From positions 14,211-78,210 of the forward strand of contig DATBPB010000066.1 in NCBI GenBank assembly GCA_036561565.1: a DNA stretch of 64,000 bases. Reading direction: 5' to 3'. Positions 4,653 to 64,000 of this stretch are shown here, one piece after another. The notes below the pieces were generated by a model that made no database searches, had not been told where the DNA came from, and saw only the letters and a program-made list of their open reading frames with translations. Made by a program: the position numbers and the translations under genes. This DNA comes from Solirubrobacteraceae bacterium (GTDB taxonomy: Bacteria; Actinomycetota; Thermoleophilia; Solirubrobacterales; Solirubrobacteraceae). How positions within the stretch are numbered: the stretch's first letter is position 1; each line of letters starts with the position of its first letter.

Positions 4653-5804
4653 TTGCGCATATGCCTGGTCTATGACTGCCTGTACCCCCACACGGTCGGG
4701 GGCGCCGAGCGCTGGTATCGCAATCTCGCCGAGCGGCTGGCCGCCGCCGGCCACGAAGTGACGTACCTGACGCTCCGTCAGTGGCCGCGCGATCAGCCCC
4801 CGCAGATCGACGGCGTGCGCGTGGTCGCGGTCGGGCCGCCGATGTCGCTCTATGTGGAGGGCCGGCGGCGGATCCTGCCGCCGCTTCGCTTCGGCGGCGG
4901 AGTGCTCGTTCACCTGGTGGCTCGCGGGCGCCGCTACGACGTGGTGCACACAGCCTCGTTCCCCTATTTCTCGCTGCTCGCGGCCGCGCTCGCGCGCCCG
5001 GCCTGGCGCTACGCGCTGATCGTCGACTGGCACGAGGTGTGGTCGGATGACTACTGGCGCGAGTATCTCGGCGCGGCGGGGTGGTTCGGGATCGCCGTGC
5101 AGCGGCTCTGCGCGCGGGTTCGCCAGCGGGCGTTCTGCTTCTCGCGACTTCACGCCGATCGGCTGCGGCGCGAGGGCCTGCGCGGCGACGTCACCGTCCT
5201 CGAGGGGGAGTACGCCGGGCCGCTGGAACCCGCGCCCGTGCAGCAGCCCGAGCCGGTCGTGATCTTCGCCGGGCGGCTGATCCCCGAGAAGCGCGCGGCG
5301 AGCGTCGTGCCGGCGGTGGCGATCGCCTCAGAGTCGGTGCCGGGGCTGCGCGGCGTGATCTACGGCGACGGGCCGCAGCGCGCCGCGGTGGACGAGGCGA
5401 TCGCGGCGCTGGCGGATCCGGCGAGCGTGCAGGCGCCGGGGTTCGTCGACGCCGCCGTGCTCCACAGTGCCCTCGCCTGCGCGCTGACGATGGTGCTGCC
5501 CTCGCGCCGCGAGGGCTACGGCATGGTCGTCGTCGAGGCGGCCCAGTGCGGCACCCCGAGCATCGTCGTGCGGGAGCCCGACAACGCGGCGGTCGAGCTC
5601 ATCGAGGAGGGCGTCAATGGCGTGATCGCGGCGTCGGCGGCACCCGAGGCGCTCGCCGCGGCGATCGTCGCCGTCCACCGCGGCGGCGCGGCGCTTCGCG
5701 CCAGCACGCGCGAGTGGTTCGCCGCGAACGCGGAGCGACTGTCGCTTGAGCGCTCGCTCGAAACGGTCCTCGCCGCCTACGAGCCGGACGCGGCGCGCGC
5801 GTAG
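4653..5804 (+). CDS. Glycosyltransferase family 4 (GT-B)
   Basis: 383 aa with a TTG start. N-terminus RICLVYDCLYPHTVGGAERW. The E-x7-E region is REGYGMVVVEAAQCGTPSIV. Confidence 0.85.
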   Translation: MRICLVYDCLYPHTVGGAERWYRNLAERLAAAGHEVTYLTLRQWPRDQPPQIDGVRVVAVGPPMSLYVEGRRRILPPLRFGGGVLVHLVARGRRYDVVHTASFPYFSLLAAALARPAWRYALIVDWHEVWSDDYWREYLGAAGWFGIAVQRLCARVRQRAFCFSRLHADRLRREGLRGDVTVLEGEYAGPLEPAPVQQPEPVVIFAGRLIPEKRAASVVPAVAIASESVPGLRGVIYGDGPQRAAVDEAIAALADPASVQAPGFVDAAVLHSALACALTMVLPSRREGYGMVVVEAAQCGTPSIVVREPDNAAVELIEEGVNGVIAASAAPEALAAAIVAVHRGGAALRASTREWFAANAERLSLERSLETVLAAYEPDAARA

Positions 5805-6895
5805 ACGTCGAGCGTTCCGCGCGCCGTGCGCTCCCACGTGAACTTCGCGGCGCGCGCGCGACCGGCCTGACGCAGCGCCTCGATCTCGGGGCCGCCCGCC
5901 AGCAGACGCCGAAGCGTCGCGGCGATCGCGCCCGCATCGTGCGGATCGAACAGCAGCCCGGCGTCGCCAACGATCTCGGGTAGCGACGAGGCGTTCGAGC
6001 ACGCGACCGGCACGCCCCGGGACATCGCTTCGAGGACCGGCAGGCCGAACCCCTCATACAGCGAGGGAAAGACGAACGCCGGCGTGAGTGCCCACAGCCC
6101 CTCGAGCATTGCCGGCTCGACCCAGCCGGCCCAGCGAACATCCGCTTCGATCCCGAGTTCGCGGACTCGCGCGCGCAGCGCCCGCTCGTAGTCCGTGACA
6201 TATCCGGCAAGGACGAGCAGCGGTCGCCGCTCGAGCATCGCGAGCGCCTCGAACAGCCGGACCAGGTTCTTGTGCGGTCGCTGTGCCGACAGCGCGAGCA
6301 GCACCTGACGGTCGGCCAGCTCGAAGCGACGGCGCACCTCTCCTTCGCCGGCTGCCGTGACCGCCGATCTCGAGCCCAGTCCCTGGGGGACGACGTCGAT
6401 GCGCGAAGTGTCCGTGCCGAGCAGCTCGACGATGTCGCGCTTGGTCGCCTCGCTGACGGCGATCACGCGCCGGCAGCGCCGCACGGCGAGCGGGACCAGC
6501 ACGCGCATCCCGAGCGCTCGCAAACCCATGTGCGCCTCGGGATAGCGGCGGTAGATGAGGTCGTGCACGGTGACGACGCGCACGAAACGCCCCCACAGCG
6601 GCGAGGTCGAGGCGAGCGAGTGGACGAGGTCGACGCCGGCCGCGGCAGCGATGCGGGGCAGCAGCTGCTGCTCGCCGCGGACCCACTCGGCGCGATTGCC
6701 GACGCGGACAGGCACCTCGACCTTCGGGACGATCTCGCCCCAGGGGCCGGGGCCGGCGTCGCGGTTCACGAACGCCGTGAAGCGCGTGCCGGCCGGGGCG
6801 CACCGCACAAGCTCAGGAATCAACTCGCGCGCGGCGACCTCCATGCCGCCGGTTTCGCCGGGAACCAGATAGATGAGGTTCAGGCCGACGTGCAC
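5777..6895 (-). CDS. Glycosyltransferase family 4
   Basis: 372 aa. Motifs: MHVGLNLIYLVPGETGGME…, KNLVRL, and YEGFGLPVLEAMSRGVPVACSNASSLPEIVG (E-x7-E). Its 3' end overlaps the convergent GT4 gene by 28 nt. Confidence 0.85.
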   Translation of the reverse strand: MHVGLNLIYLVPGETGGMEVAARELIPELVRCAPAGTRFTAFVNRDAGPGPWGEIVPKVEVPVRVGNRAEWVRGEQQLLPRIAAAAGVDLVHSLASTSPLWGRFVRVVTVHDLIYRRYPEAHMGLRALGMRVLVPLAVRRCRRVIAVSEATKRDIVELLGTDTSRIDVVPQGLGSRSAVTAAGEGEVRRRFELADRQVLLALSAQRPHKNLVRLFEALAMLERRPLLVLAGYVTDYERALRARVRELGIEADVRWAGWVEPAMLEGLWALTPAFVFPSLYEGFGLPVLEAMSRGVPVACSNASSLPEIVGDAGLLFDPHDAGAIAATLRRLLAGGPEIEALRQAGRARAAKFTWERTARGTLDVYARAASGS

Positions 6896-6910
6896 GATCG
6901 ACCTCGGAAG

Positions 6911-8038
6911 TCAGCGCGGTTCGGACAGGACACGTGCGTAGACCTCGTGGGTGGCGGCGGCGGCCCGCGACCACGTGAACGTCGCCGCGAAACGCGGTCC
7001 CAGATCTCGCGCGCGCCGGTCGTCCAACGCCGCCACGATCGCGTTGGCCGCGGCGGCGGGGTCGCGCGGGTTGAAGTGGTGGACGAGCTCGCCGCCGACC
7101 TCGCGCAGCACCGGCAGATCCGATGCCGCCACCGGCACCCCGTGCTCGAGCGCCTCGAGAACCGGGAAGCCGAACCCCTCGCCAAGGGTCGGCTGCGCGG
7201 CGGCGGCCGCCAGCCGCCACAGTCCCTCCAGATCCGCGTCCCCGACGTAGCCGACGAACCGAACGCGATCCTCGACGCGCAGTTCGGCGGCGAGCGCCCG
7301 CAGCTCCGCGTCGTAGGGCTCGGGGTGTCCGACGAACAGGATCACCACGTCGGACGGCAGCTGCGAGGCCGACCGCACGAGAACCTCCTGGTTCTTGTGC
7401 GGACGCTTGGCGCCGAGGCACAGCACGACCCGTCGGCCGTCGATCGCCAGCCGGCGGCGAAGCTCGGCCTCCGCCGTGGGGGCGCTCGCCGTGTGGCGCT
7501 CTAGTCCATGGTGAATGACCGTGAAGCGCTCCGTCGGGACCCCGAGCAGAGCGCAGATGTCGTCGCGCGCGGCCGCCGAGACCGCGATCAGAGCGTCGGC
7601 GCGACGGACCGCGGCGCGCAGCAGGAACGCCATGCCAAGCGTCGTGACGCGACCGAACGTGGGCTGGCGCATGAAGGTCACGTCGTGAACGGTGACGACG
7701 GCGCGCGTTCCGGGCACCAGCGGCGCGATGCTTGCCAGGCTGTGCACGATCTGCTCGCCTCGGCGCCGGGCGCGCAGCGGTAGCAGCGCTTGCTCGGCGA
7801 GCTGGCGGCGCACGCGCTGCCCGTCCTCGCACGGGAGCGAGACGAGCTCGGAGAAGTCGCCGAAGCCGTCTGCATGCAGGCTCGAGGCACCCGAGGCCGT
7901 GGTCACGATCGTCAGTCGAAGCGACGGAAAGGCATTCGCCAGGGCGGGAGCGAGGCCGCGCAGATAGGTCTCCGGCCCGCCGCTCACGCCCGGTGCAAGG
8001 AACAGGGCATTGAGCACCACCCGGCTTGGCGCTGGCAT
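6911..8038 (-). CDS. Glycosyltransferase family 4
   Basis: 375 aa. Motifs: PHKNQEVLV and GEGFGFPVLEALEHGVPVAASDLPVLREVGG. Confidence 0.85.
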   Translation of the reverse strand: MPAPSRVVLNALFLAPGVSGGPETYLRGLAPALANAFPSLRLTIVTTASGASSLHADGFGDFSELVSLPCEDGQRVRRQLAEQALLPLRARRRGEQIVHSLASIAPLVPGTRAVVTVHDVTFMRQPTFGRVTTLGMAFLLRAAVRRADALIAVSAAARDDICALLGVPTERFTVIHHGLERHTASAPTAEAELRRRLAIDGRRVVLCLGAKRPHKNQEVLVRSASQLPSDVVILFVGHPEPYDAELRALAAELRVEDRVRFVGYVGDADLEGLWRLAAAAAQPTLGEGFGFPVLEALEHGVPVAASDLPVLREVGGELVHHFNPRDPAAAANAIVAALDDRRARDLGPRFAATFTWSRAAAATHEVYARVLSEPR

Positions 8039-56483: not shown

Positions 56484-56930
56484 ATGAGCGCCGTCCAGAC
56501 GCAGCGAACGCTTGTCAAATCAGTGCCGGAGCTGTGGGCCGAGCTGAGCGAGTCCGCTCTGCTCGGGCGCATGCTCGGAAAGCCCTTTGGCGAGATCACG
56601 ATCACGCGCCGCACCCCCGAGTCGAGCATCGAATGGGAGAGCGAGCGCGCAGCGGGAGCGGTCGAGCTCGAGCCGAGCGGCTTTGGAACGCGGGTGCGCC
56701 TGACGGCGCAGATCGCTCCGCCACCGGCGCTCGAGCCGGTCGCGGAGCCACCGCGGCCCGGTCTTCTTGCGCGCATCTGGGCCCAGATCCGCCCACCCCA
56801 GCCCGCGATCGATGATCCGATCGAGCGCACGCCGGCGCCGATCGACGCCGGCGCCGCAGAGGACGCGCTGACTGCCGTGCTTGACGAGATCGGCGCCGCG
56901 CGGCACCGGCCGTTCTCCAGGCACCAATAG
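56484..56930 (+). CDS. Hypothetical protein (small N-terminal alpha/beta domain plus Pro-rich tail)
   Basis: In-frame ATG at 56484. Motif: [23 protein letters not shown]…[17 protein letters not shown]…. No family could be assigned by eye. Confidence 0.4.
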
Positions 56931-56940
56931 GATCGCGCGC

Positions 56941-58506
56941 TTGACCGAGCACGCGCCGCACAGCTACGCGGAGCGGCTGGCGAGGCTCGAGGAGCTCCGC
57001 CACGAGGCCGCGCACGCCGAGGGGCCCGCGGTCGCCAAGCAGCACGCGAAGGGCAAGTACACGGCGCGCGAGCGGATCGAGAAGCTGCTCGATCCCGGCT
57101 CCTTCGAGGAGCTCGACGGCTTCGTGCGCCACCGCACGACCGACTTCGAGATGGCCGGCTCGCGCCCCCTCGCCGACGCCGTGATCACCGGGCACGGCAC
57201 GATCGACGGGCGAGCGGTCTGCGTGTTCAGCCAGGACTTCACGGTCTTCGGCGGATCGCTTGGCGAGGTGATGGGCGAGAAGATCTGCAAGATCATGGAT
57301 CTGGCGGCCCGTGTCGGCTGCCCGCTGATCGGGATCAACGACTCGGGCGGGGCGCGCATCCAGGAGGGCGTCGTCTCGCTCGGCGCCTATGGCGAGGTCT
57401 TCTACCGAAACGTCCGCTGCTCGGGGGTGATCCCGCAGATCTCGCTGGTGATGGGTCCCTGCGCGGGCGGCGCGGTCTACTCGCCGGCGATCACCGACTT
57501 CGTGCTGATGGTCAAGGAGACCTCGCACATGTTCATCACGGGTCCCGACGTGATCCGCACGGTCACGCACGAGGAGGTCGGCTTCGAGGAGCTCGGCGGC
57601 GCGGTCACGCACAACACCAAGTCGGGCGTCGCCCACTTCGCTACGGCCGACGAGGACGACTGCCTGGCGGAGGCGCGCTACCTGCTGTCGTTCCTACCGC
57701 AGAACAACCTCGAGTCGACGCCGCGCGTGGCGAGCGCCGATGACCCGCTGCGCATGGATGCCGAGCTCGACTCCGTCGTCCCCGACAGCCCGTCAAAGGC
57801 CTACGACATGCGAGCGGCGATCGCGATGATCGTCGACGACACAGAGTTCCTGGAGGTGCACGAGCACCATGCCACCAACGTCGTCTGCGGCTTCGCGCGC
57901 CTCGACGGCATCGCCGTCGGCGTGGTGGGCAACCAGCCGCAGTCGCTCGCCGGCGTGCTGGACATCGACGCCTCGGCCAAGGCGGCGCGGTTCGTGCGAA
58001 CCTGCGACGCCTTCAACGTCCCGATCGTCACCTTTGTCGACGTGCCGGGCTTCCTGCCGGGCACCGCGCAGGAGTGGGGCGGGATCATCCGCCACGGCGC
58101 GAAGCTGCTCTACGCCTACGCCGAAGCGACCGTGCCGAAGTTGACGGTGATCACGCGCAAGGCCTACGGCGGCGCCTACGACGTCATGGCCTCAAAGCAC
58201 CTGCGCGCCGACTTCAACTTCGCCTGGCCCACAGCCGAGATCGCCGTGATGGGACCCGAGGGCGCCGTCAACATCATCTACAAGCGCCAGCTCGCCTCGA
58301 GCAAGTCGCCGGCCAAGCGCCGCGAGCAGCTGATGGACGACTACCGCGCGCGGTTCGCCAACCCCTACTCGGCCGCCGAACGCGGCTACATCGACGACGT
58401 CATCGAGCCCCACCAGACGCGGCCGCGGCTGATCACGGCGTTACAGCTGCTCGAGACCAAACGCGAGCACGGTCCGCAGCGCAAGCACGGCAACATCCCC
58501 CTCTAG
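56941..58506 (+). CDS. pccB: Acyl-CoA (propionyl-CoA) carboxylase carboxyltransferase beta subunit
   Basis: In-frame TTG at 56941. Motif: …[23 protein letters not shown]…[15 protein letters not shown]…[12 protein letters not shown]…[13 protein letters not shown]…GVVGNQP…AGVLDI…[28 protein letters not shown]…. Confidence 0.9.
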
Positions 58507-58512
58507 GAGCGC

Positions 58513-59550
58513 TCAGCCGGCATGCGCGCGGCGTGCGAGTGCCCGCACGCGGCTCGTCAGGTCGAGCTCCCCCAGGTTCCACGTCGGATGCCGCGAGCGC
58601 AACAGCGTCGAGACGCGCTCGCGCTCGCCGACCGACCACCAGCCCTGCGAGTGCTCGCCGAACAGCGCGCGCTTGAGCGCGGTCCCGCTGCCGGGATCCG
58701 GCCAGTTCGCCTCGATCTGGCCGGCCGCGGCCTCGACGTCCTCGAACGCCACGGCCGTCCAGAGCTCCGCCAGCCGCCGCAGCCGAAGCGGCTCGGGTGT
58801 TTCCGCGGGACCGAACTCCTCGAGAAACGACCGCAGCGCGCCCGGGGCCGGAGACCGTGCGGTGCACGCCAGCTCCTCGAGCCACGCCGGGGCCGGCTTC
58901 GGCAGGCGCTCGAGCACGCCCGTGCCGCCGCTCAGCCGCGGCGCGGCCGACAGCAGGAACTCCGATTGATCGGCCGCGGCGAGCTCGCGCGTGCGAAACG
59001 AGAAACGGGCGCGCAGCGCCGGCCACATCGCCGACCACAGCGCGACCATCGCGCGTGCGGCCTCCGCCAGATCGGCGTGGAGCACGACGCCGGCGCCGGT
59101 CGTGCGACAGGCGACCTGGATGCAGCGCTCGAACAGCTCGACGCTCGGGGTGCGCTCGGACAGGAACGTCGCCGGCGGGTCCGCGCCGTCGGCGGTGAGC
59201 GTCAGCGCGGTGGTGAAGCCCTCGAGCGACCCTCCCGCCGGATTGCGCGGCAGGCGCACGAGCGCCTCGACCGCATGCGGAGCCGCCAGCGCCGCCGCAT
59301 CGATCAGCAGGACGTGGCTGCACACCGCGCCCGCGCGCTCGGCGCGCGCGTCACTCCAGGTGACGCAGAAGGCGAACTGACGGGTGTCGGGCAGCGCGAG
59401 CCCGGTGACCAGCGGCGGACAGCCGGGGCTCATCACGGCGTCGGTGGCAACGAGCAGCCGCACCATCAGCGCACGCGGAACCTCGCGCGATGCGGCGAGG
59501 AGCCGGTGGCCGTCGTCGTAGCCGAAGACGAACTGGTCGGCCCGGCTCAC
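58513..59550 (-). CDS. Unknown 345-aa partner protein of the paired-GTPase operon (gene 4)
   Basis: GTG at 59550 overlaps the upstream stop (GTGA). It has balanced, non-shadow composition, an N-terminal block QFVFGYDDGHRLLAAS, and no catalytic motif or TM segment that I recognise. Confidence 0.65.
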   Translation of the reverse strand: MSRADQFVFGYDDGHRLLAASREVPRALMVRLLVATDAVMSPGCPPLVTGLALPDTRQFAFCVTWSDARAERAGAVCSHVLLIDAAALAAPHAVEALVRLPRNPAGGSLEGFTTALTLTADGADPPATFLSERTPSVELFERCIQVACRTTGAGVVLHADLAEAARAMVALWSAMWPALRARFSFRTRELAAADQSEFLLSAAPRLSGGTGVLERLPKPAPAWLEELACTARSPAPGALRSFLEEFGPAETPEPLRLRRLAELWTAVAFEDVEAAAGQIEANWPDPGSGTALKRALFGEHSQGWWSVGERERVSTLLRSRHPTWNLGELDLTSRVRALARRAHAG

Positions 59551-60392
59551 GAGCCCCAGATCGCCCAGCGCAGCGGCTCTGTCAACGAGACGCGCTTCCC
59601 GTCGCGCTCGATGGCGTACACGCGGTCAAAGATCTCGCCCTTGGCGAGCAGCTCGTCGCGATCGACCAGCGCGCCGCCCTGCGCCGACACGCCGAACACG
59701 CCGAGCTCGGCGATGTGCGGGTTGCACTCGATCGTCGCGAGCAGGCCGGGAATCCGCGTCTCGAGCCACTGGTAGGGAGTGGGATCCCCGTCGACTGTGT
59801 CCCACGCCGAGACGACGACCGCCATGCGAATCGGCCACAGCGCCCGGCCCACGTCGGCGACGTTCTCGAACACCGAGATCAGCTCGGCGGCGCTGCTCGC
59901 GTGCTCGCGGGGGTCGAACGGGATCGTTGCCGCTGCGTTCGCGCCGTCCCCGTTCGCAGCCTGCGTGGCCCCCCCAAGCACGGCAACCGGCTGAGGCACG
60001 CGGATGCGCTCCGGGTGCACGAACAGCAGGATCCCCGTCGCCTCCTCGCAGATCCCACGCAGCGGCGCGTACCAGACACGTTGTTCGAAGAGCAGGCGCA
60101 GCGACTCGCCGGAGGTGTCCGGGACGAGCAGGTCAGCCGTGCCGTTGGCCTCGAAATCGAGCGTTACGGCGAGCTGGCCGCTCGTCTCGAGCGTCGTTCG
60201 CTCGACCTCCTGAGCCCGCGCGACCTGGTCGGCGAGTCGCTGGACGTAGGCGCGATCGCCGCTGAAGCTGGCCTCGGTGACGGACCGATCGAGCGGGGAC
60301 TGCACGAGCGCCCAGAGCGTCCCGAGGTAGGTCGACTTTCCGCTGCGCGGCATCCCAAGCAGCGCGACGCGAGGCCGCGGGCGTTCGCTCAC
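59547..60392 (-). CDS. P-loop GTPase-like protein B (gene 3)
   Basis: GTG at 60392 overlaps the upstream stop (GTGA). G1 VALLGMPRSGKST. G3 LLVPDTSGE. G4-like VVVSAWD. G5-like GVSAQGG. Confidence 0.7.
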   Translation of the reverse strand: MSERPRPRVALLGMPRSGKSTYLGTLWALVQSPLDRSVTEASFSGDRAYVQRLADQVARAQEVERTTLETSGQLAVTLDFEANGTADLLVPDTSGESLRLLFEQRVWYAPLRGICEEATGILLFVHPERIRVPQPVAVLGGATQAANGDGANAAATIPFDPREHASSAAELISVFENVADVGRALWPIRMAVVVSAWDTVDGDPTPYQWLETRIPGLLATIECNPHIAELGVFGVSAQGGALVDRDELLAKGEIFDRVYAIERDGKRVSLTEPLRWAIWGS

Positions 60393-61291
60393 AGCTCATA
60401 CCCCACGTTCGTGCGGCCGGGCTCGAGCTCCGCGGCAGGGGCCGGAATCGTCTCGTGCCGCTCGCCGCTGCACAGCCAGCGCACAAGCTCACCGAGGCCG
60501 GCGGGCTCCGCGGCGAGCCCCGGTAGCGCGGTCCGCACGCTCGTCGTCTCGGGGTCGACGCCGCGCACGGTCGAGAGAAGATGGGGCTCGTGCCGGCGAA
60601 CCGCCCGTTCGCCTGCCGCTGTCAGCGCGTCGGCCTTGGTCAGGGCGATCGCCACGCGCGCGCTCGCGCGGACGGCACCCGAGCCACGCAGCGCGAGAAT
60701 CTGACGCAGCGCCCGCGTCGCGGCGATCTCGGACTCGCCCGGTGTCGAGAGCGCCTCGCCGTCGAGGACGACGACGAAGCGGTCGGCGTGAGCGGCCAAC
60801 GGCAGTTCCTGAAGCAACGGCCGGCCCTCGCGGACGCGCTCGAAGACGCCACCGCCGAGATCGGCGAAGACGAGCTCGACGAGCTCGCCGCTCGGCGGCC
60901 TGACGCGCATGTGGAGGAGAAAAGCATCCTCGTCGGCGGTTGGCGGGAAGCGCTCGCGGAGATGACCGGACTCGATCCGCCCGCCGTGGGCGCGGCGTTC
61001 GAAGCCGAGCGCCGTGCGAGTGCCGGCGAGGCGGTGCTCGGCCAGGCCGTTCGCGGTCTGCATCCGCTGCCACAGCGAGACGAGCAACGCCGTCTTGCCG
61101 GTGCCCGGCTCGCCCATCAGCAGCACCAGCCGCGAGCCTCGACCGCGCCGCAGCCCGCGCGCCTCGGCGAGCGTCATCGCCTCGCCCGAGATCGCCGTGT
61201 CCGATTCCTCCGAACTGGGCTCGAGCCGCGCGTCGGCCTGCTCGAGGGCCTCGATCCAGGAGCGCTCGCGCTGGCCGTCCGGCTCGCTCAT
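60389..61291 (-). CDS. P-loop GTPase-like protein A (gene 2)
   Basis: ATG at 61291 overlaps the upstream stop (ATGA). G1 LLMGEPGTGKTAL. G3 VFADLGGG. G4 IALTKAD. Confidence 0.7.
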   Translation of the reverse strand: MSEPDGQRERSWIEALEQADARLEPSSEESDTAISGEAMTLAEARGLRRGRGSRLVLLMGEPGTGKTALLVSLWQRMQTANGLAEHRLAGTRTALGFERRAHGGRIESGHLRERFPPTADEDAFLLHMRVRPPSGELVELVFADLGGGVFERVREGRPLLQELPLAAHADRFVVVLDGEALSTPGESEIAATRALRQILALRGSGAVRASARVAIALTKADALTAAGERAVRRHEPHLLSTVRGVDPETTSVRTALPGLAAEPAGLGELVRWLCSGERHETIPAPAAELEPGRTNVGYEL

Positions 61292-61887
61292 CGCGCGATC
61301 GCCTCAGCCAGCGGGATCAGCTTTCCGGAGCTGCGCGCGCGCTCGAGGATCGCGTGCTCGCGCGCGATGCCGTGCGTCTCCTCAAGTCCCTTGAGCAGGT
61401 CGAGAGACCGGGCGGCGCGGTAGCGGACGTCGGGCGCGACGCGCATCACATCGATGATCACGGCGTGCTCGGCGGCGCTGATCGGCTCAGACGGCTCCTC
61501 GCCGGCCGCGCCTTCGTCCGCCGGCTCCTCGACCCGCGCGGCGAGCCCCGCCCAGCCGGCGGTGGAGAGCGGCTCATACGCCGGCTCGCCACGCTCCGCC
61601 TCGACGGTCGCGAGCACCGCCGGAGCGGATTCGACCACCGCCGGCTCTGGAGCAACGACCGGCGGGATGGCCTCGGTCGGCTCCAGATCGGCGTCCTCCA
61701 CGGGCTGCGCGGCAGGCGGCTCAGGCGCCGCCTCGGTGTGAACCACGGGCGGCTCCCGGGGCTCCTCGCGCTCCTCGCGAGCCGGCGTCAGCGGCTCATC
61801 GAAGAGCGGGGCGTAGGGACCCGGCATCGGCCCGTCGTCGGGGCCGGCCCGCGGGCGCGATTTGCCGCGGAACAGACGCCCGAACAT
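61288..61887 (-). CDS. Pro/Glu/Ala-rich low-complexity protein with ~65-aa helical C-terminal domain (gene 1 of the GTPase operon)
   Basis: 199 aa. Residues ~20-130 are PE/PA-rich (…EPREPPVVHTEAAPEPPAAQPVEDADLEPTEAIPPVVAPEPAVVE…). The C-terminus is AEHAVIIDVMRVAPDVRYRAARSLDLLKGLEETHGIAREHAILERAR…. Confidence 0.55.
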   Translation of the reverse strand: MFGRLFRGKSRPRAGPDDGPMPGPYAPLFDEPLTPAREEREEPREPPVVHTEAAPEPPAAQPVEDADLEPTEAIPPVVAPEPAVVESAPAVLATVEAERGEPAYEPLSTAGWAGLAARVEEPADEGAAGEEPSEPISAAEHAVIIDVMRVAPDVRYRAARSLDLLKGLEETHGIAREHAILERARSSGKLIPLAEAIAR

Positions 61888-62036
61888 CAGCTCGCCTGCC
61901 GCGAGAGAGGAGCGGGCTGATACCCGTTGGCCGATGAGATCTGCATCGCGTCAGTACTACCCATCGCCGCTGCGGGCGAACGCTAGCACCAGCCCGCGAG
62001 CACGCGTGGCTCGTCGTGGGGCGCCAGAATGGCGAC

Positions 62037-62243
62037 ATGGAGGTGCAGCGCGGGATCGAAGCGGCCGGGTCGCCCACCGAGCTCGAGGCCGTGGCGATCG
62101 TCGCGGCGATCCAGCGGTTCCTCAGCGACACCGCGCCGCCGGCGCCCCGGGCCTCGGGGCGCGACAGCGGATGGCTGCGGGCTGCACGGCTTGAGGCGGT
62201 TGGCCTCGATGCCACGGCAAACCCCCATTTCTTAAAACTCTAG
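62037..62243 (+). CDS. Small protein resembling the acyl-CoA carboxylase epsilon subunit (tentative)
   Basis: 68 aa from the ATG at 62037, with GC-rich third codon positions. MEVQRGIEAAGSPTELEAVAIVAAIQRF…PPAPRASGRDSGWLRAARLE resembles AccE/PccE-type peptides from memory. It is on the same strand as pccB. Confidence 0.4.
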   Translation: MEVQRGIEAAGSPTELEAVAIVAAIQRFLSDTAPPAPRASGRDSGWLRAARLEAVGLDATANPHFLKL

Positions 62244-62260
62244 AAAGGCGCCTGCCTTTC
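62243..62260 (+). terminator. Short hairpin at the stop codon of the epsilon-like ORF (terminator or operator candidate)
   Basis: GAAAGGC (62243-62249) and GCCTTTC (62254-62260) form a 7-bp stem with a 4-nt loop, inside an unusually AT-rich 55-nt patch. Confidence 0.3.
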
Positions 62261-62262
62261 AG

Positions 62263-62268
62263 TAGTAT
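62263..62268 (+). promoter_or_regulatory. Putative -10 element (TAGTAT) for a leaderless sulfite-reductase transcript
   Basis: TAGTAT is followed by 6 nt and then the ATG at 62275, the same geometry as upstream of vapB. It lies in an AT-rich patch (62221-62275). Confidence 0.3.
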
Positions 62269-62274
62269 CTAGGG

Positions 62275-64000
62275 ATGGCCTCCACCCCGCGCGGCTCGCT
62301 GGCCGATCCCGAGGTGTATGAGAACGTCCCCGGGCACGTCATCCCGATCCTCGAGCGCGAGTTCGACGACTTCGACACGCAGGCCGGGAAGTTCCTCGCC
62401 GGCGAGACGCCCGAGGACGAGTTCATCGGCTTCCGCCTCAAGCAGGGCGTCTACGGGCAGCGCCAGATCGAGCGCCAGATGGTCCGCGTCAAGCTCCCCT
62501 TCGGCGGGATCAACCCCGAACAGATGGAGGCCTTCGCGGAGGCCGTCGAGCGCTGGGTTCCGCTGCGCAAGGGTCACATCACGACCCGTCAGAACGTGCA
62601 GATGCACCACGTGCCGCTGCCCGACGCAGCCAAGCTGATCCGCGACATCTCCCGCAGCGGCCTGTCCTCGCGCGAAGGCTGCGGCAACACGATGCGGAAC
62701 GTGACCGGCGATCCGTGGGCGGGAATCAGCGACGGCGAGCTTTTCGACCCGACTCCCTACGTCGGCGCCTACGTCCGCTACTTCGTGCGCAACGAGGTAT
62801 GCCAGCTGATGCCGCGCAAGTTCAAGACGGCGTTCGCGGCGACAGACGAGGACGTCGCGATCACGGGCATTCACGACGGCGGGTTCCTGCCGCGAGTCAG
62901 GGACGGCCGCCGCGGATTCGAGCTTCGCGTCGGCGGCGGCACCTCGATCATGCCGCGCGTCGCGCCGACTCTCTATGAGTTCGTCGGCGCCGACGACGGC
63001 GAGTACCTGAAGGTGATGGAGGCGGTACTGCGGATCTTCAACCGCCAGGACGAGCTGCGAGCCAACCGCGCCCGAGCCCGCATCAAGGTGCTGATCGACA
63101 AGATCGGCATCGACGCCTTCCGCGAGATGGTCGAGGAGGAGCTGCGCGGAGACTGGGTCGGCGAGCGCGACTTCGATCCCGCGCCGCTGCTGTTCGCCTA
63201 CGACGAGGAGGCGGGCGCGCCGGAGCTTCGCGACCACTACCGCCAGCCCGAGGGCTCCGAGCCCGAGTTCACGCGCTTCGTCGAGCTCAACACGCAGCCT
63301 CAGCGCCAGGAGGGCTTCGTCAGCGTCGAGGTCCGCGTGATCCGCGGCGACCTGACCCCCGAGCAGTTCCGCGGGATCGCCGCGATCATGCGCGATCACT
63401 CCGGCGGCTACGCGCGCACGACCGTTCAGCAGAACCTCGTGCTGCGCTGGGTGCGTCCGCAGGCGCTCTATGAGGTGTGGCTCGCGCTGCGCGAGCTGGG
63501 TCTCGCCGACGCCGGCCCGCGCACGACCGAGGACGTCGTCAGCTGCCCTGGAACCGACTCCTGCAAGCTCGGCATCACGAGCTCGATGGGGCTCAACGCG
63601 GCGGTCCAGGAGCGCATCGAGTCGATGCGGCTCACCGATCCGCTGAGCAGCCGGATCCACATCAAGATGAGCGGCTGCCCGAACGGCTGCGGGCAGCATC
63701 ACATCGCCAACATCGGCTTCACGGGCGCCTCGATCAAGATCGGCGAGCGCACCGTCCCCGCCTACATCCCGATGATCGGCGGGAGCTTCGCCGACGGCGG
63801 CGTCGCGATCGGCCAGCGGCTGAAGTCGCGCCTGCCGGCGAAGCGCGTGCCCGACGCCGTCGAGCGCTGGATCCGCGCCTACGAGGACGAGCGCGTCGAG
63901 GGCGAGACGTTCAACGAGTACGTCGAGCGGATCGGGACGGGACGCTTCGAGGAGCTCGTCAAGGACCTCGCGCTGCCGCCCGAGTTCTCGCTGGAGACGA
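62275..64000 (+). CDS. sir: Ferredoxin-dependent sulfite (nitrite/sulfite) reductase hemoprotein, NirA/Sir type (partial; runs off the window end)
   Basis: Absent from the ORF track because there is no stop in the window. My translation from ATG 62275: MASTPRGSLADPEVYENVPGHV…FRLKQGVYGQRQ…TTRQNVQMHH…REGCGNTMRNVTG…VVSCPGTDSCKLGITSS…IKMSGCPNGCGQHH (siroheme/4Fe-4S Cys cluster). The 477-aa track ORF on the minus strand is its antisense shadow. Confidence 0.85.
   Translation, partial: MASTPRGSLADPEVYENVPGHVIPILEREFDDFDTQAGKFLAGETPEDEFIGFRLKQGVYGQRQIERQMVRVKLPFGGINPEQMEAFAEAVERWVPLRKGHITTRQNVQMHHVPLPDAAKLIRDISRSGLSSREGCGNTMRNVTGDPWAGISDGELFDPTPYVGAYVRYFVRNEVCQLMPRKFKTAFAATDEDVAITGIHDGGFLPRVRDGRRGFELRVGGGTSIMPRVAPTLYEFVGADDGEYLKVMEAVLRIFNRQDELRANRARARIKVLIDKIGIDAFREMVEEELRGDWVGERDFDPAPLLFAYDEEAGAPELRDHYRQPEGSEPEFTRFVELNTQPQRQEGFVSVEVRVIRGDLTPEQFRGIAAIMRDHSGGYARTTVQQNLVLRWVRPQALYEVWLALRELGLADAGPRTTEDVVSCPGTDSCKLGITSSMGLNAAVQERIESMRLTDPLSSRIHIKMSGCPNGCGQHHIANIGFTGASIKIGERTVPAYIPMIGGSFADGGVAIGQRLKSRLPAKRVPDAVERWIRAYEDERVEGETFNEYVERIGTGRFEELVKDLALPPEFSLET

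Follow-up and report, generated by a model that had tools for sequence, protein, structure and literature searches.

Within a 64,000-nt stretch of a soil actinobacterium of the family Solirubrobacteraceae (hereafter the window; GenBank assembly GCA_036561565.1, contig DATBPB010000066.1, positions 14,211 to 78,210), a pair of genes that lie side by side in most close relatives is parted by an opposite-strand operon of four genes. We consider it likely that the DNA from 58507 to 62015-62036 (~3.5 kb) is an accessory DO-GTPase operon that was inserted once and has been inherited since. The parted pair consists of pccB, which encodes an acyl-CoA carboxyltransferase, and a small conserved open reading frame (ORF), followed in turn by the reductase gene sir. 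This reading is carried by the geometry of the locus, by empty sites in relatives, by the nesting of carriers in gene trees, by native composition and by selection on the genes. Read directly on the plus strand, the order is pccB stop, 6 nt, four minus-strand genes, small ORF and sir. An earlier note on this DNA had described a four-gene opposite-strand operon that fills the gap and stops 6 nt from the pccB stop, and its coordinates proved exact. The features are as follows.

56881..58506, plus strand: pccB/accD-type acyl-CoA carboxyltransferase (beta subunit), the left flank (PF01039, E=7.4e-202; TIGR01117, 801 bits).
58507-58512, no strand: 6-nt spacer GAGCGC at the left junction, separating the convergent stops of pccB and GAP1.
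58513..59550, minus strand: GAP1 (GTPase-associated protein 1) of the N1 type, the last gene of the operon (PF20012 GAP1-N1, E=6.5e-17).
59547..60392, minus strand: DO-GTPase1, P-loop GMPRSGKST (PF19975, E=2.5e-44).
60389..61291, minus strand: DO-GTPase2, P-loop GEPGTGKT, N-terminus not cysteine-rich (PF19993, E=1.7e-28).
61288..61887, minus strand: p199, the first gene of the operon, without a match in Pfam, NCBIfam or PADLOC.
61979..61991, minus strand: TGGTGCTAGCGTT, putative promoter of the operon (extended -10, TGnTAGCGT), proposed from motif conservation.
62025..62030, plus strand: CAGAAT, a -10-like hexamer and possible new leaderless promoter of the small ORF, suggested by its geometry.
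62037..62243 (68 aa, ATG start) or 62016..62243 (75 aa, GTG start), plus strand: small conserved ORF, candidate epsilon-like subunit, the right flank.
62275..63999, plus strand: sir/nirA, ferredoxin-type sulfite/nitrite reductase (PF01077 and PF03460), the syntenic neighbor of the small ORF.

pccB ends on TAG at 58504-58506, and the GAP1 stop reads TCA on the plus strand at 58513-58515; in another carrier genome, G007, the spacer measures 5 nt instead of 6. No convincing terminator was found between these convergent genes, whose stops lie 5-6 nt apart. Within the operon the genes overlap by 4 nt each, every one starting on the preceding stop, and 128-149 nt separate its upstream end (61887) from the start of the small ORF.

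The junction was compared in the 29 congeneric genomes with a readable locus, among 39 genomes of the genus and 61 of the order (genomes, contigs, loci and families are denoted G, C, L and f, with G000 for the genome of the window). pccB, the small ORF and sir were contiguous in 21/29, a gene resembling ornithine cyclodeaminase/mu-crystallin (OCD-like) stood at the junction in 5/29, and the DO-GTPase operon in 3/29. The operon occupies the junction only in G000, G005 and G007 and in two metagenome contigs, and all five of the five known carriers of this operon type (type A below) hold it there. The spacing between pccB and the small ORF is 4-130 nt in the 21 contiguous congeners and also in G041, G043 and G051; in the sister contiguous genomes G031 and G026 the small ORF starts just 4-5 nt past the pccB stop. 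The order pccB-small ORF-sir is kept in most of the genus. The earlier note had taken the operon for an insertion into a normally contiguous pair; the insertion is borne out by the 21 congeners with an empty site and by carriers nested among non-carriers. "Normally contiguous" describes the closest ~20 relatives of the window and some other families well, but not the order as a whole: other families and the basal clade of the genus have the OCD-like gene or other cargo between the two genes, so the pair is not universally contiguous.

Genomes of the basal clade and of families f2 and f4 have the OCD-like gene at this junction, on the opposite strand (L062 and L063 in G030, L064 in G034, L106 in G023, L108 in G022, L103 in G018, L058 in G044 and L061 in G054). 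The gene was called from sequence motifs and tblastn between loci and is possibly the ancestral occupant of the junction. Other genes fill the interval in families f2 and f3, and in f5 we found a KatG-like gene or a remnant of an insertion sequence, with the small ORF inverted. The pccB-OCD-small ORF locus is nearly identical on two contigs of G030 (L062 on C7, L063 on C1), reflecting either a duplication or strain heterogeneity in this metagenome-assembled genome (MAG) with 5% contamination. Among the carriers, G007 has a gene for an FkbM-type methyltransferase (L025, G007:C17 5525..6505, minus strand; PF05050, E=1.7e-6) between the promoter motif of the DO-GTPase operon and the small ORF. 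The most divergent carrier (L093, ERZ25039540:contig_21938, 4955..6971) has ~2 kb of extra DNA, with unassigned small ORFs, between the small ORF and the p199 homologue.

What exactly was parted depends on the small ORF. It is conserved in 53/61 genomes of the order, and its ratio of nonsynonymous to synonymous substitution rates (dN/dS) is 0.26-0.46, in carriers and non-carriers alike, which marks it as a real gene. The earlier note had likened its product to the epsilon subunit of acyl-CoA carboxylases and stated that epsilon genes usually follow beta genes directly in actinobacteria. The rule held in 11/15 sampled loci of true ACC_epsilon genes, which lie 9-75 nt downstream of a carboxyltransferase gene, and two of the other four lie at contig ends. 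The likeness stood in part, as the profile-profile match and the position support it but PF13822 (ACC_epsilon) stays below threshold. On the window ORF this model gave 13.6 bits (E=0.11) against a gathering cut-off of 25, and family members scored one by one came to 22.9 bits at most. Nevertheless, ACC_epsilon is the only family matched repeatedly by homologues of the small ORF (23/99 members at E<=0.01, best E=3.9e-5). Aligned by hhalign with 13 bona fide ACC_epsilon proteins from other actinobacteria, the small-ORF family gave a probability of 56-63%, a score of 27-28 and P~1e-4 over 44 columns. In this alignment the PxxEExAA helix pairs up, as does the Trp downstream of it. Against the score of 28, 200 column-shuffled controls averaged 9.8 and reached at most 19.3, and the reversed profile gave 14.7. 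AlphaFold models a confident helix across the conserved motif, and the model matched no PDB fold at E<1.

Alternatively, the small ORF may encode a protein linked to sulfate assimilation, or an unrelated one, so that the operon split a block of synteny and not a functional housekeeping pair. The score of 13.6 against 25 bits is in line with this view, as is an hmmsearch of PDB sequences in which the family profile failed to retrieve AccE5, whereas a profile of true epsilon proteins did (E=3.6e-12; structures e.g. 9t97 and 9yx1). Synteny with sir almost equals that with pccB in strength. In f4 the small ORF lies near sir with no pccB within 4 kb, in f5 it is inverted and divergent from sir, and in f2 and f4 a dodecin-like gene comes next, ahead of genes of sulfur assimilation. 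Such a protein would, however, have to explain why ACC_epsilon is its sole repeated match, why the alignment outscores every shuffle and the reversed profile with helix and Trp in register, and why the gene follows pccB by 4-130 nt in most genomes, much as true epsilon genes do. Moreover, no other PF13822 candidate was found in G000. We regard this alternative as a serious one of lesser probability, and lean towards an epsilon-like small ORF; from profile similarity and position, the epsilon identity is plausible but unproven.

A few further observations concern this ORF and its partner. Ribosomal protein S14 was the top PDB match of the small-ORF profile (E~0.03) and was judged a chance hit. 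Some small-ORF homologues carry a precomputed PF26062 label (P0002, P0004, P0030, P0066, P0068, P0071, P0086 and P0093). The dodecin-like gene (68-69 aa, MAVVKIIELIG...) was seen directly after the small ORF and before the sulfate-assimilation genes at L047, L058, L060 and L061. As for pccB, G000 is a 2.9-Mb MAG of 91 contigs (71.2% GC, 4.2% contamination) with three carboxyltransferase and three biotin-carboxylase genes (contigs C29, C61, C2 and C10); because no biotin-carboxylase gene adjoins pccB, the gene for its alpha partner lies at another place.

Trees of both flanking genes speak for a gain of the operon. The sir tree unites the three carriers in a clade (100/100) that is nested within contiguous genomes. 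In the pccB tree their clade (100/99) falls within a 92/90 clade that also includes G026 and G031, itself inside a 100/99 contiguous clade, and the OCD-bearing genomes are basal. When a fourth, more distant metagenomic carrier was added to the sir tree, carrier monophyly was not rejected (approximately unbiased test, p=0.515). None of the 24 genomes from the order's other families yielded DO-GTPase1, and a scan of 185,579 species genomes with DO-GTPase1 returned two already known congeners only. Given the empty sites, the nesting in the trees and the absence of DO-GTPase1 from those 24 genomes, we conclude that the pair was contiguous before the operon entered it, and one old gain is the best reading of the carrier distribution. 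The converse, a module ancestral at the site and precisely deleted in most of the genus, strikes us as improbable. The junction does lose cargo, as an OCD-like occupant in the basal clade, f2 and f4 suggests, and G026 may fall within the carrier group in a free tree. However, at least four independent deletions would be needed, each giving back a pccB-small ORF spacing of 4-130 nt, and DO-GTPase1 did not turn up in the 24 other-family genomes; since the carriers are a small nested clade in both flank-gene trees, deletion in relatives was judged unlikely.

The inserted operon is old. Between G000 and G007 its genes show synonymous divergence (dS) of 0.66-1.02 and dN/dS of 0.15-0.37 (GAP1 0.25, DO-GTPase1 0.15, DO-GTPase2 0.22, p199 0.37), compared with a dS of 0.34 and a dN/dS of 0.13 for the flanking sir, from which we conclude that the insert is held by selection and evolves faster than its flanks. 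Its composition is native, as both measures lie within the genome range: GC content is 73.3% (88th percentile), compared with 71.2 +/- 1.9 for 1,586 windows of that size across the genome, and among these windows the tetranucleotide distance ranks at the 71st percentile. A compositionally foreign module was rejected on these percentiles, and the deviation that the earlier note had proposed to look for did not appear. The short target-site duplications that it had suggested seeking at the junctions were not found either; the search for these and for direct or terminal inverted repeats at the junctions gave imperfect GC-rich chance matches only. Its remark that no integrase, tRNA or flanking repeat is visible agrees with all our scans: no tRNA in the 24 kb from 40000 to 64000, no recombinase (integrase or transposase) domain in the four genes or their neighbors by Pfam and NCBIfam, and no matched Rfam element.

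The earlier note had leaned towards an accessory or mobile role. The first half of this holds, in that DO-GTPase systems are patchy in the genus (16/39 genomes, three types); the second does not, with native composition, a single site and no marks of mobility. The module is accessory and, in its present state, not visibly self-mobile. A cassette that moves horizontally and reached the lineage from outside only recently is, if anything, a shade less credible than ancestral presence. The patchy distribution would suit such a cassette, GTPase systems of this kind have been described as mobile gene neighborhoods (Kaur et al., PMC7159879), and the dS of the module exceeds that of sir. Nevertheless, its composition is that of the genome, the five known carriers share one junction, its nearest relatives are modules of the same genus, the scan of 185,579 species genomes brought up congeners only, and integrase, tRNA, target-site duplication and terminal inverted repeats are all missing. 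Finally, a chimeric contig or other error of assembly or binning, conceivable for a 91-contig MAG with 4.2% contamination, can be dismissed because two independent metagenome contigs from other samples (81 kb and 334 kb) share both junctions of the filled site, as does G007 on a single contig, and G005 repeats the right junction.

The operon itself is, by its domains, an accessory GAP1-N1-type DO-GTPase system, a class that was put forward computationally as NTP-dependent conflict or defence systems by Kaur, Burroughs, Iyer & Aravind (2020, eLife 9:e52696, PMC7159879). Two paralogous DO-GTPases are present, PF19975 and PF19993 both exceeding their cut-offs. GAP1 is of the N1 type by PF20012 (62 bits, cut-off 27), with GAP1-M at 17.1 bits and under its own cut-off, and the gene overlaps the stop of DO-GTPase1. 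According to the same study N1 systems also comprise a helical GASH protein, a zinc ribbon on one GTPase and a variable effector, and occur mostly in proteobacteria, bacteroidetes and spirochaetes. No GASH was found in the operon: p199 has no PF19994 match at E<=10, and no space is left for a further gene. PADLOC has no model for any of the four operon proteins, nor for GASH. By its domain content the operon is an undescribed GASH-less variant of this predicted conflict system.

The position of p199 in the operon is that of GASH in canonical systems. It consists of a conserved N-terminal MFGRLFRGKSR, a hypervariable Pro/Glu/Ala-rich linker of varying length that is predicted to be disordered, and a four-helix domain at the C-terminus, in which MRVAPDVRYRAARS is invariant. 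AlphaFold gave a predicted local distance difference test score of >=95 at residues 138-198 and <60 elsewhere, and the model matched no PDB fold at E<1. Only 8 relatives were found among 5.8 billion proteins. The idea that p199 is a truncated GASH was rejected, as BLAST showed no similarity to congeneric GASH proteins at E<0.03 in a tiny search space.

Three types of DO-GTPase lineage (A, B and C) are spread over the 16 positive genomes of the genus. Type A is the module of the window; the DO-GTPase1 of type B, at the purD/purE-clpB locus, is 56-61% identical to it and that of type C ~27%, and both of these types start with a true GASH gene (PF19994). At the purD/purE-clpB locus of G005 we found a five-gene, type-B-like module, p92-GASH-DO-GTPase2-DO-GTPase1-GAP1 (L096, G005:C225 3343..7357, minus strand), so that G005, with its operon at the pccB site, carries two DO-GTPase systems. 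Its first product, p92 (92 aa), is 44% identical to p199 and its gene overlaps the GASH start; it is the sole p199 homologue found away from the pccB site. Upstream of p92 stands GCTAGCGTT, which is related to TGGTGCTAGCGTT of type A, and such motifs lie ~83-104 nt before the first gene. The DO-GTPase1 (DOG1) tree joins the G005:C225 module and type A at 100/99. We infer that type A may be a relocated copy of such a five-gene module from which GASH was lost. In G012, tblastn matches to a type-B module (L046, G012:C2 7307..10022) come in several pieces for each of the three core genes, probably because this copy is decaying, or else through assembly errors.

Insertion would also have changed how the small ORF is expressed. 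The motif TGGTGCTAGCGTT lies ~93-104 nt upstream of the p199 ATG, in the same place in G000, G005 and G007; because in G007 it stays with the operon, the FkbM gene lying beyond it, the motif belongs to the insert, where it is the putative promoter of the operon itself. A scan for sigma-70 consensus promoters from 58300 to 62400 returned no matches, so the promoters proposed here are drawn from conserved motifs. CAGAAT stands 6 nt before the small-ORF ATG at 62037 and has a counterpart at the small ORF of G005 (CACAAT-N6-GTG), and sir in the window shows a like geometry, with TAGTAT 6 nt before its start (TAGTAT-N6-ATG). These -10-like hexamers 6 nt before the starts suggest leaderless transcription of both genes. 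In carriers, the small ORF could by this account no longer be co-translated with pccB and is presumably expressed from the new -10-like element. In G007, its ATG overlaps the TGA of the FkbM methyltransferase gene, which means that it has been re-coupled to a different gene. With regard to sir, CTTTCAGTAGTAT is found directly upstream of its start in all congeners (window 62221-62277; loci L007-L023), and some relatives have a hairpin and GAGG before its ATG instead.

Overall, we propose the following history, in which the source module, the promoter elements, a defence function and an epsilon function are the conjectural parts. The ancestor of what is now a small subclade of Solirubrobacteraceae would have received the operon p199-DO-GTPase2-DO-GTPase1-GAP1 once, together with its own promoter-like element, inserted into the 4-5 nt between the pccB stop and the start of a coupled, probably epsilon-like, small ORF. 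The source would most likely have been a paralogous p92-GASH-DOG2-DOG1-GAP1 module at the purD/purE-clpB locus in the same genus, which was copied with loss of GASH. As no recombinase or repeat signature is seen, illegitimate recombination probably brought the operon in, the junction being one where opposite-strand cargo is tolerated. From then on it would have been passed down vertically, perhaps exchanged at times by homologous recombination across the conserved flanks, and the four operon genes and the small ORF, now uncoupled from pccB, would have been kept under purifying selection.

Several observations weigh against this history. In the free sir tree the contiguous G026 falls between one metagenomic carrier and the core carriers, with weak support (83/48), and a single loss in G026 or a transfer through flank recombination is possible. 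All compared genomes are MAGs with 0-7% contamination. As for the source, a long branch is involved where the DOG1 tree joins the G005:C225 module to type A, and by sequence identity (44-55%) that module is no closer to type A than other type-B modules are. As for function, no effector, EAD or GAAD domain was found in the four operon proteins by Pfam, NCBIfam and PADLOC, and a literature search for experimental anti-phage defence by DO-GTPase/GAP1 systems gave only the computational paper of 2020.

A wider claim would join three proposals: that the operon is a distinct GASH-less subtype in which p199 replaces GASH as sensor or adaptor, that in Solirubrobacterales opposite-strand cargo has landed repeatedly at the pccB|epsilon-like junction, and that the split forced a leaderless promoter of its own on the small subunit gene. 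Taken together, we find these doubtful. The insertion is an ordinary accessory-gene event and does not overturn current views. Its value lies in the clean natural example it offers, with empty site, filled site and candidate source module together in one genus. It illustrates how a predicted NTPase conflict system can be domesticated into a core-gene junction without mobile-element machinery, and what becomes of a translationally coupled small gene cut from its partner, on which selection persists and which has apparently acquired start signals of its own. Furthermore, the small-protein family may be a missing epsilon-like subunit of the acyl-CoA carboxylases of Solirubrobacterales, and a minimal four-gene DO-GTPase system without GASH or effector would be compact enough to serve as a construct for testing its class experimentally for the first time.

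The locus can be set beside three known systems. The first are the beta-epsilon pairs of actinobacteria (PccB-PccE, AccD5-AccE5). In relatives of the window the small ORF is likewise directly downstream of, and co-directional with, the carboxyltransferase gene, and it encodes a similarly small, Ala-rich protein of 60-75 aa with an N-terminal PxxEEAAA(I/L) helix and a conserved Trp ~25 residues on. In contrast to these pairs, the small ORF scores below the Pfam gathering threshold, its family has motifs of its own (ERFxRDTAP and GWLRAARLEAV), it is syntenic with sulfite reductase too, and in the window 3.5 kb of opposite-strand genes part it from pccB.

Hotspots of defence genes and other variable cargo between conserved core genes are known in E. 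coli, Pseudomonas and Vibrio genomes. The junction resembles them in holding nothing, an OCD-like gene, the DO-GTPase operon, or the operon and an FkbM methyltransferase gene. A predicted conflict system is likewise among the cargo, and no integrase would be needed if exchange took place via the flanks. On the other hand, only a single cargo here is a predicted defence system, turnover is slow, with an old insert and junction states that track phylogeny, and the junction lies inside a gene pair that is coupled elsewhere and not between operons.

The third comparison is with the GAP1-N1 DO-GTPase systems. The operon departs from them in having p199, a 199-aa member of a tiny lineage-specific family, in the place of GASH, and no effector, EAD or GAAD domain can be recognised in it. 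A zinc ribbon is missing from both GTPases, as no cysteine/histidine clusters were seen in the N-terminal extensions of their translations, which were read directly, and the host is an actinobacterium (Thermoleophilia). It shares with these systems two paralogous DO-GTPases followed by an N1-type GAP1 in a tight operon, and a patchy distribution with up to three paralogous versions per lineage, and canonical GASH-containing versions (types B and C) are present in the same genus as the window.

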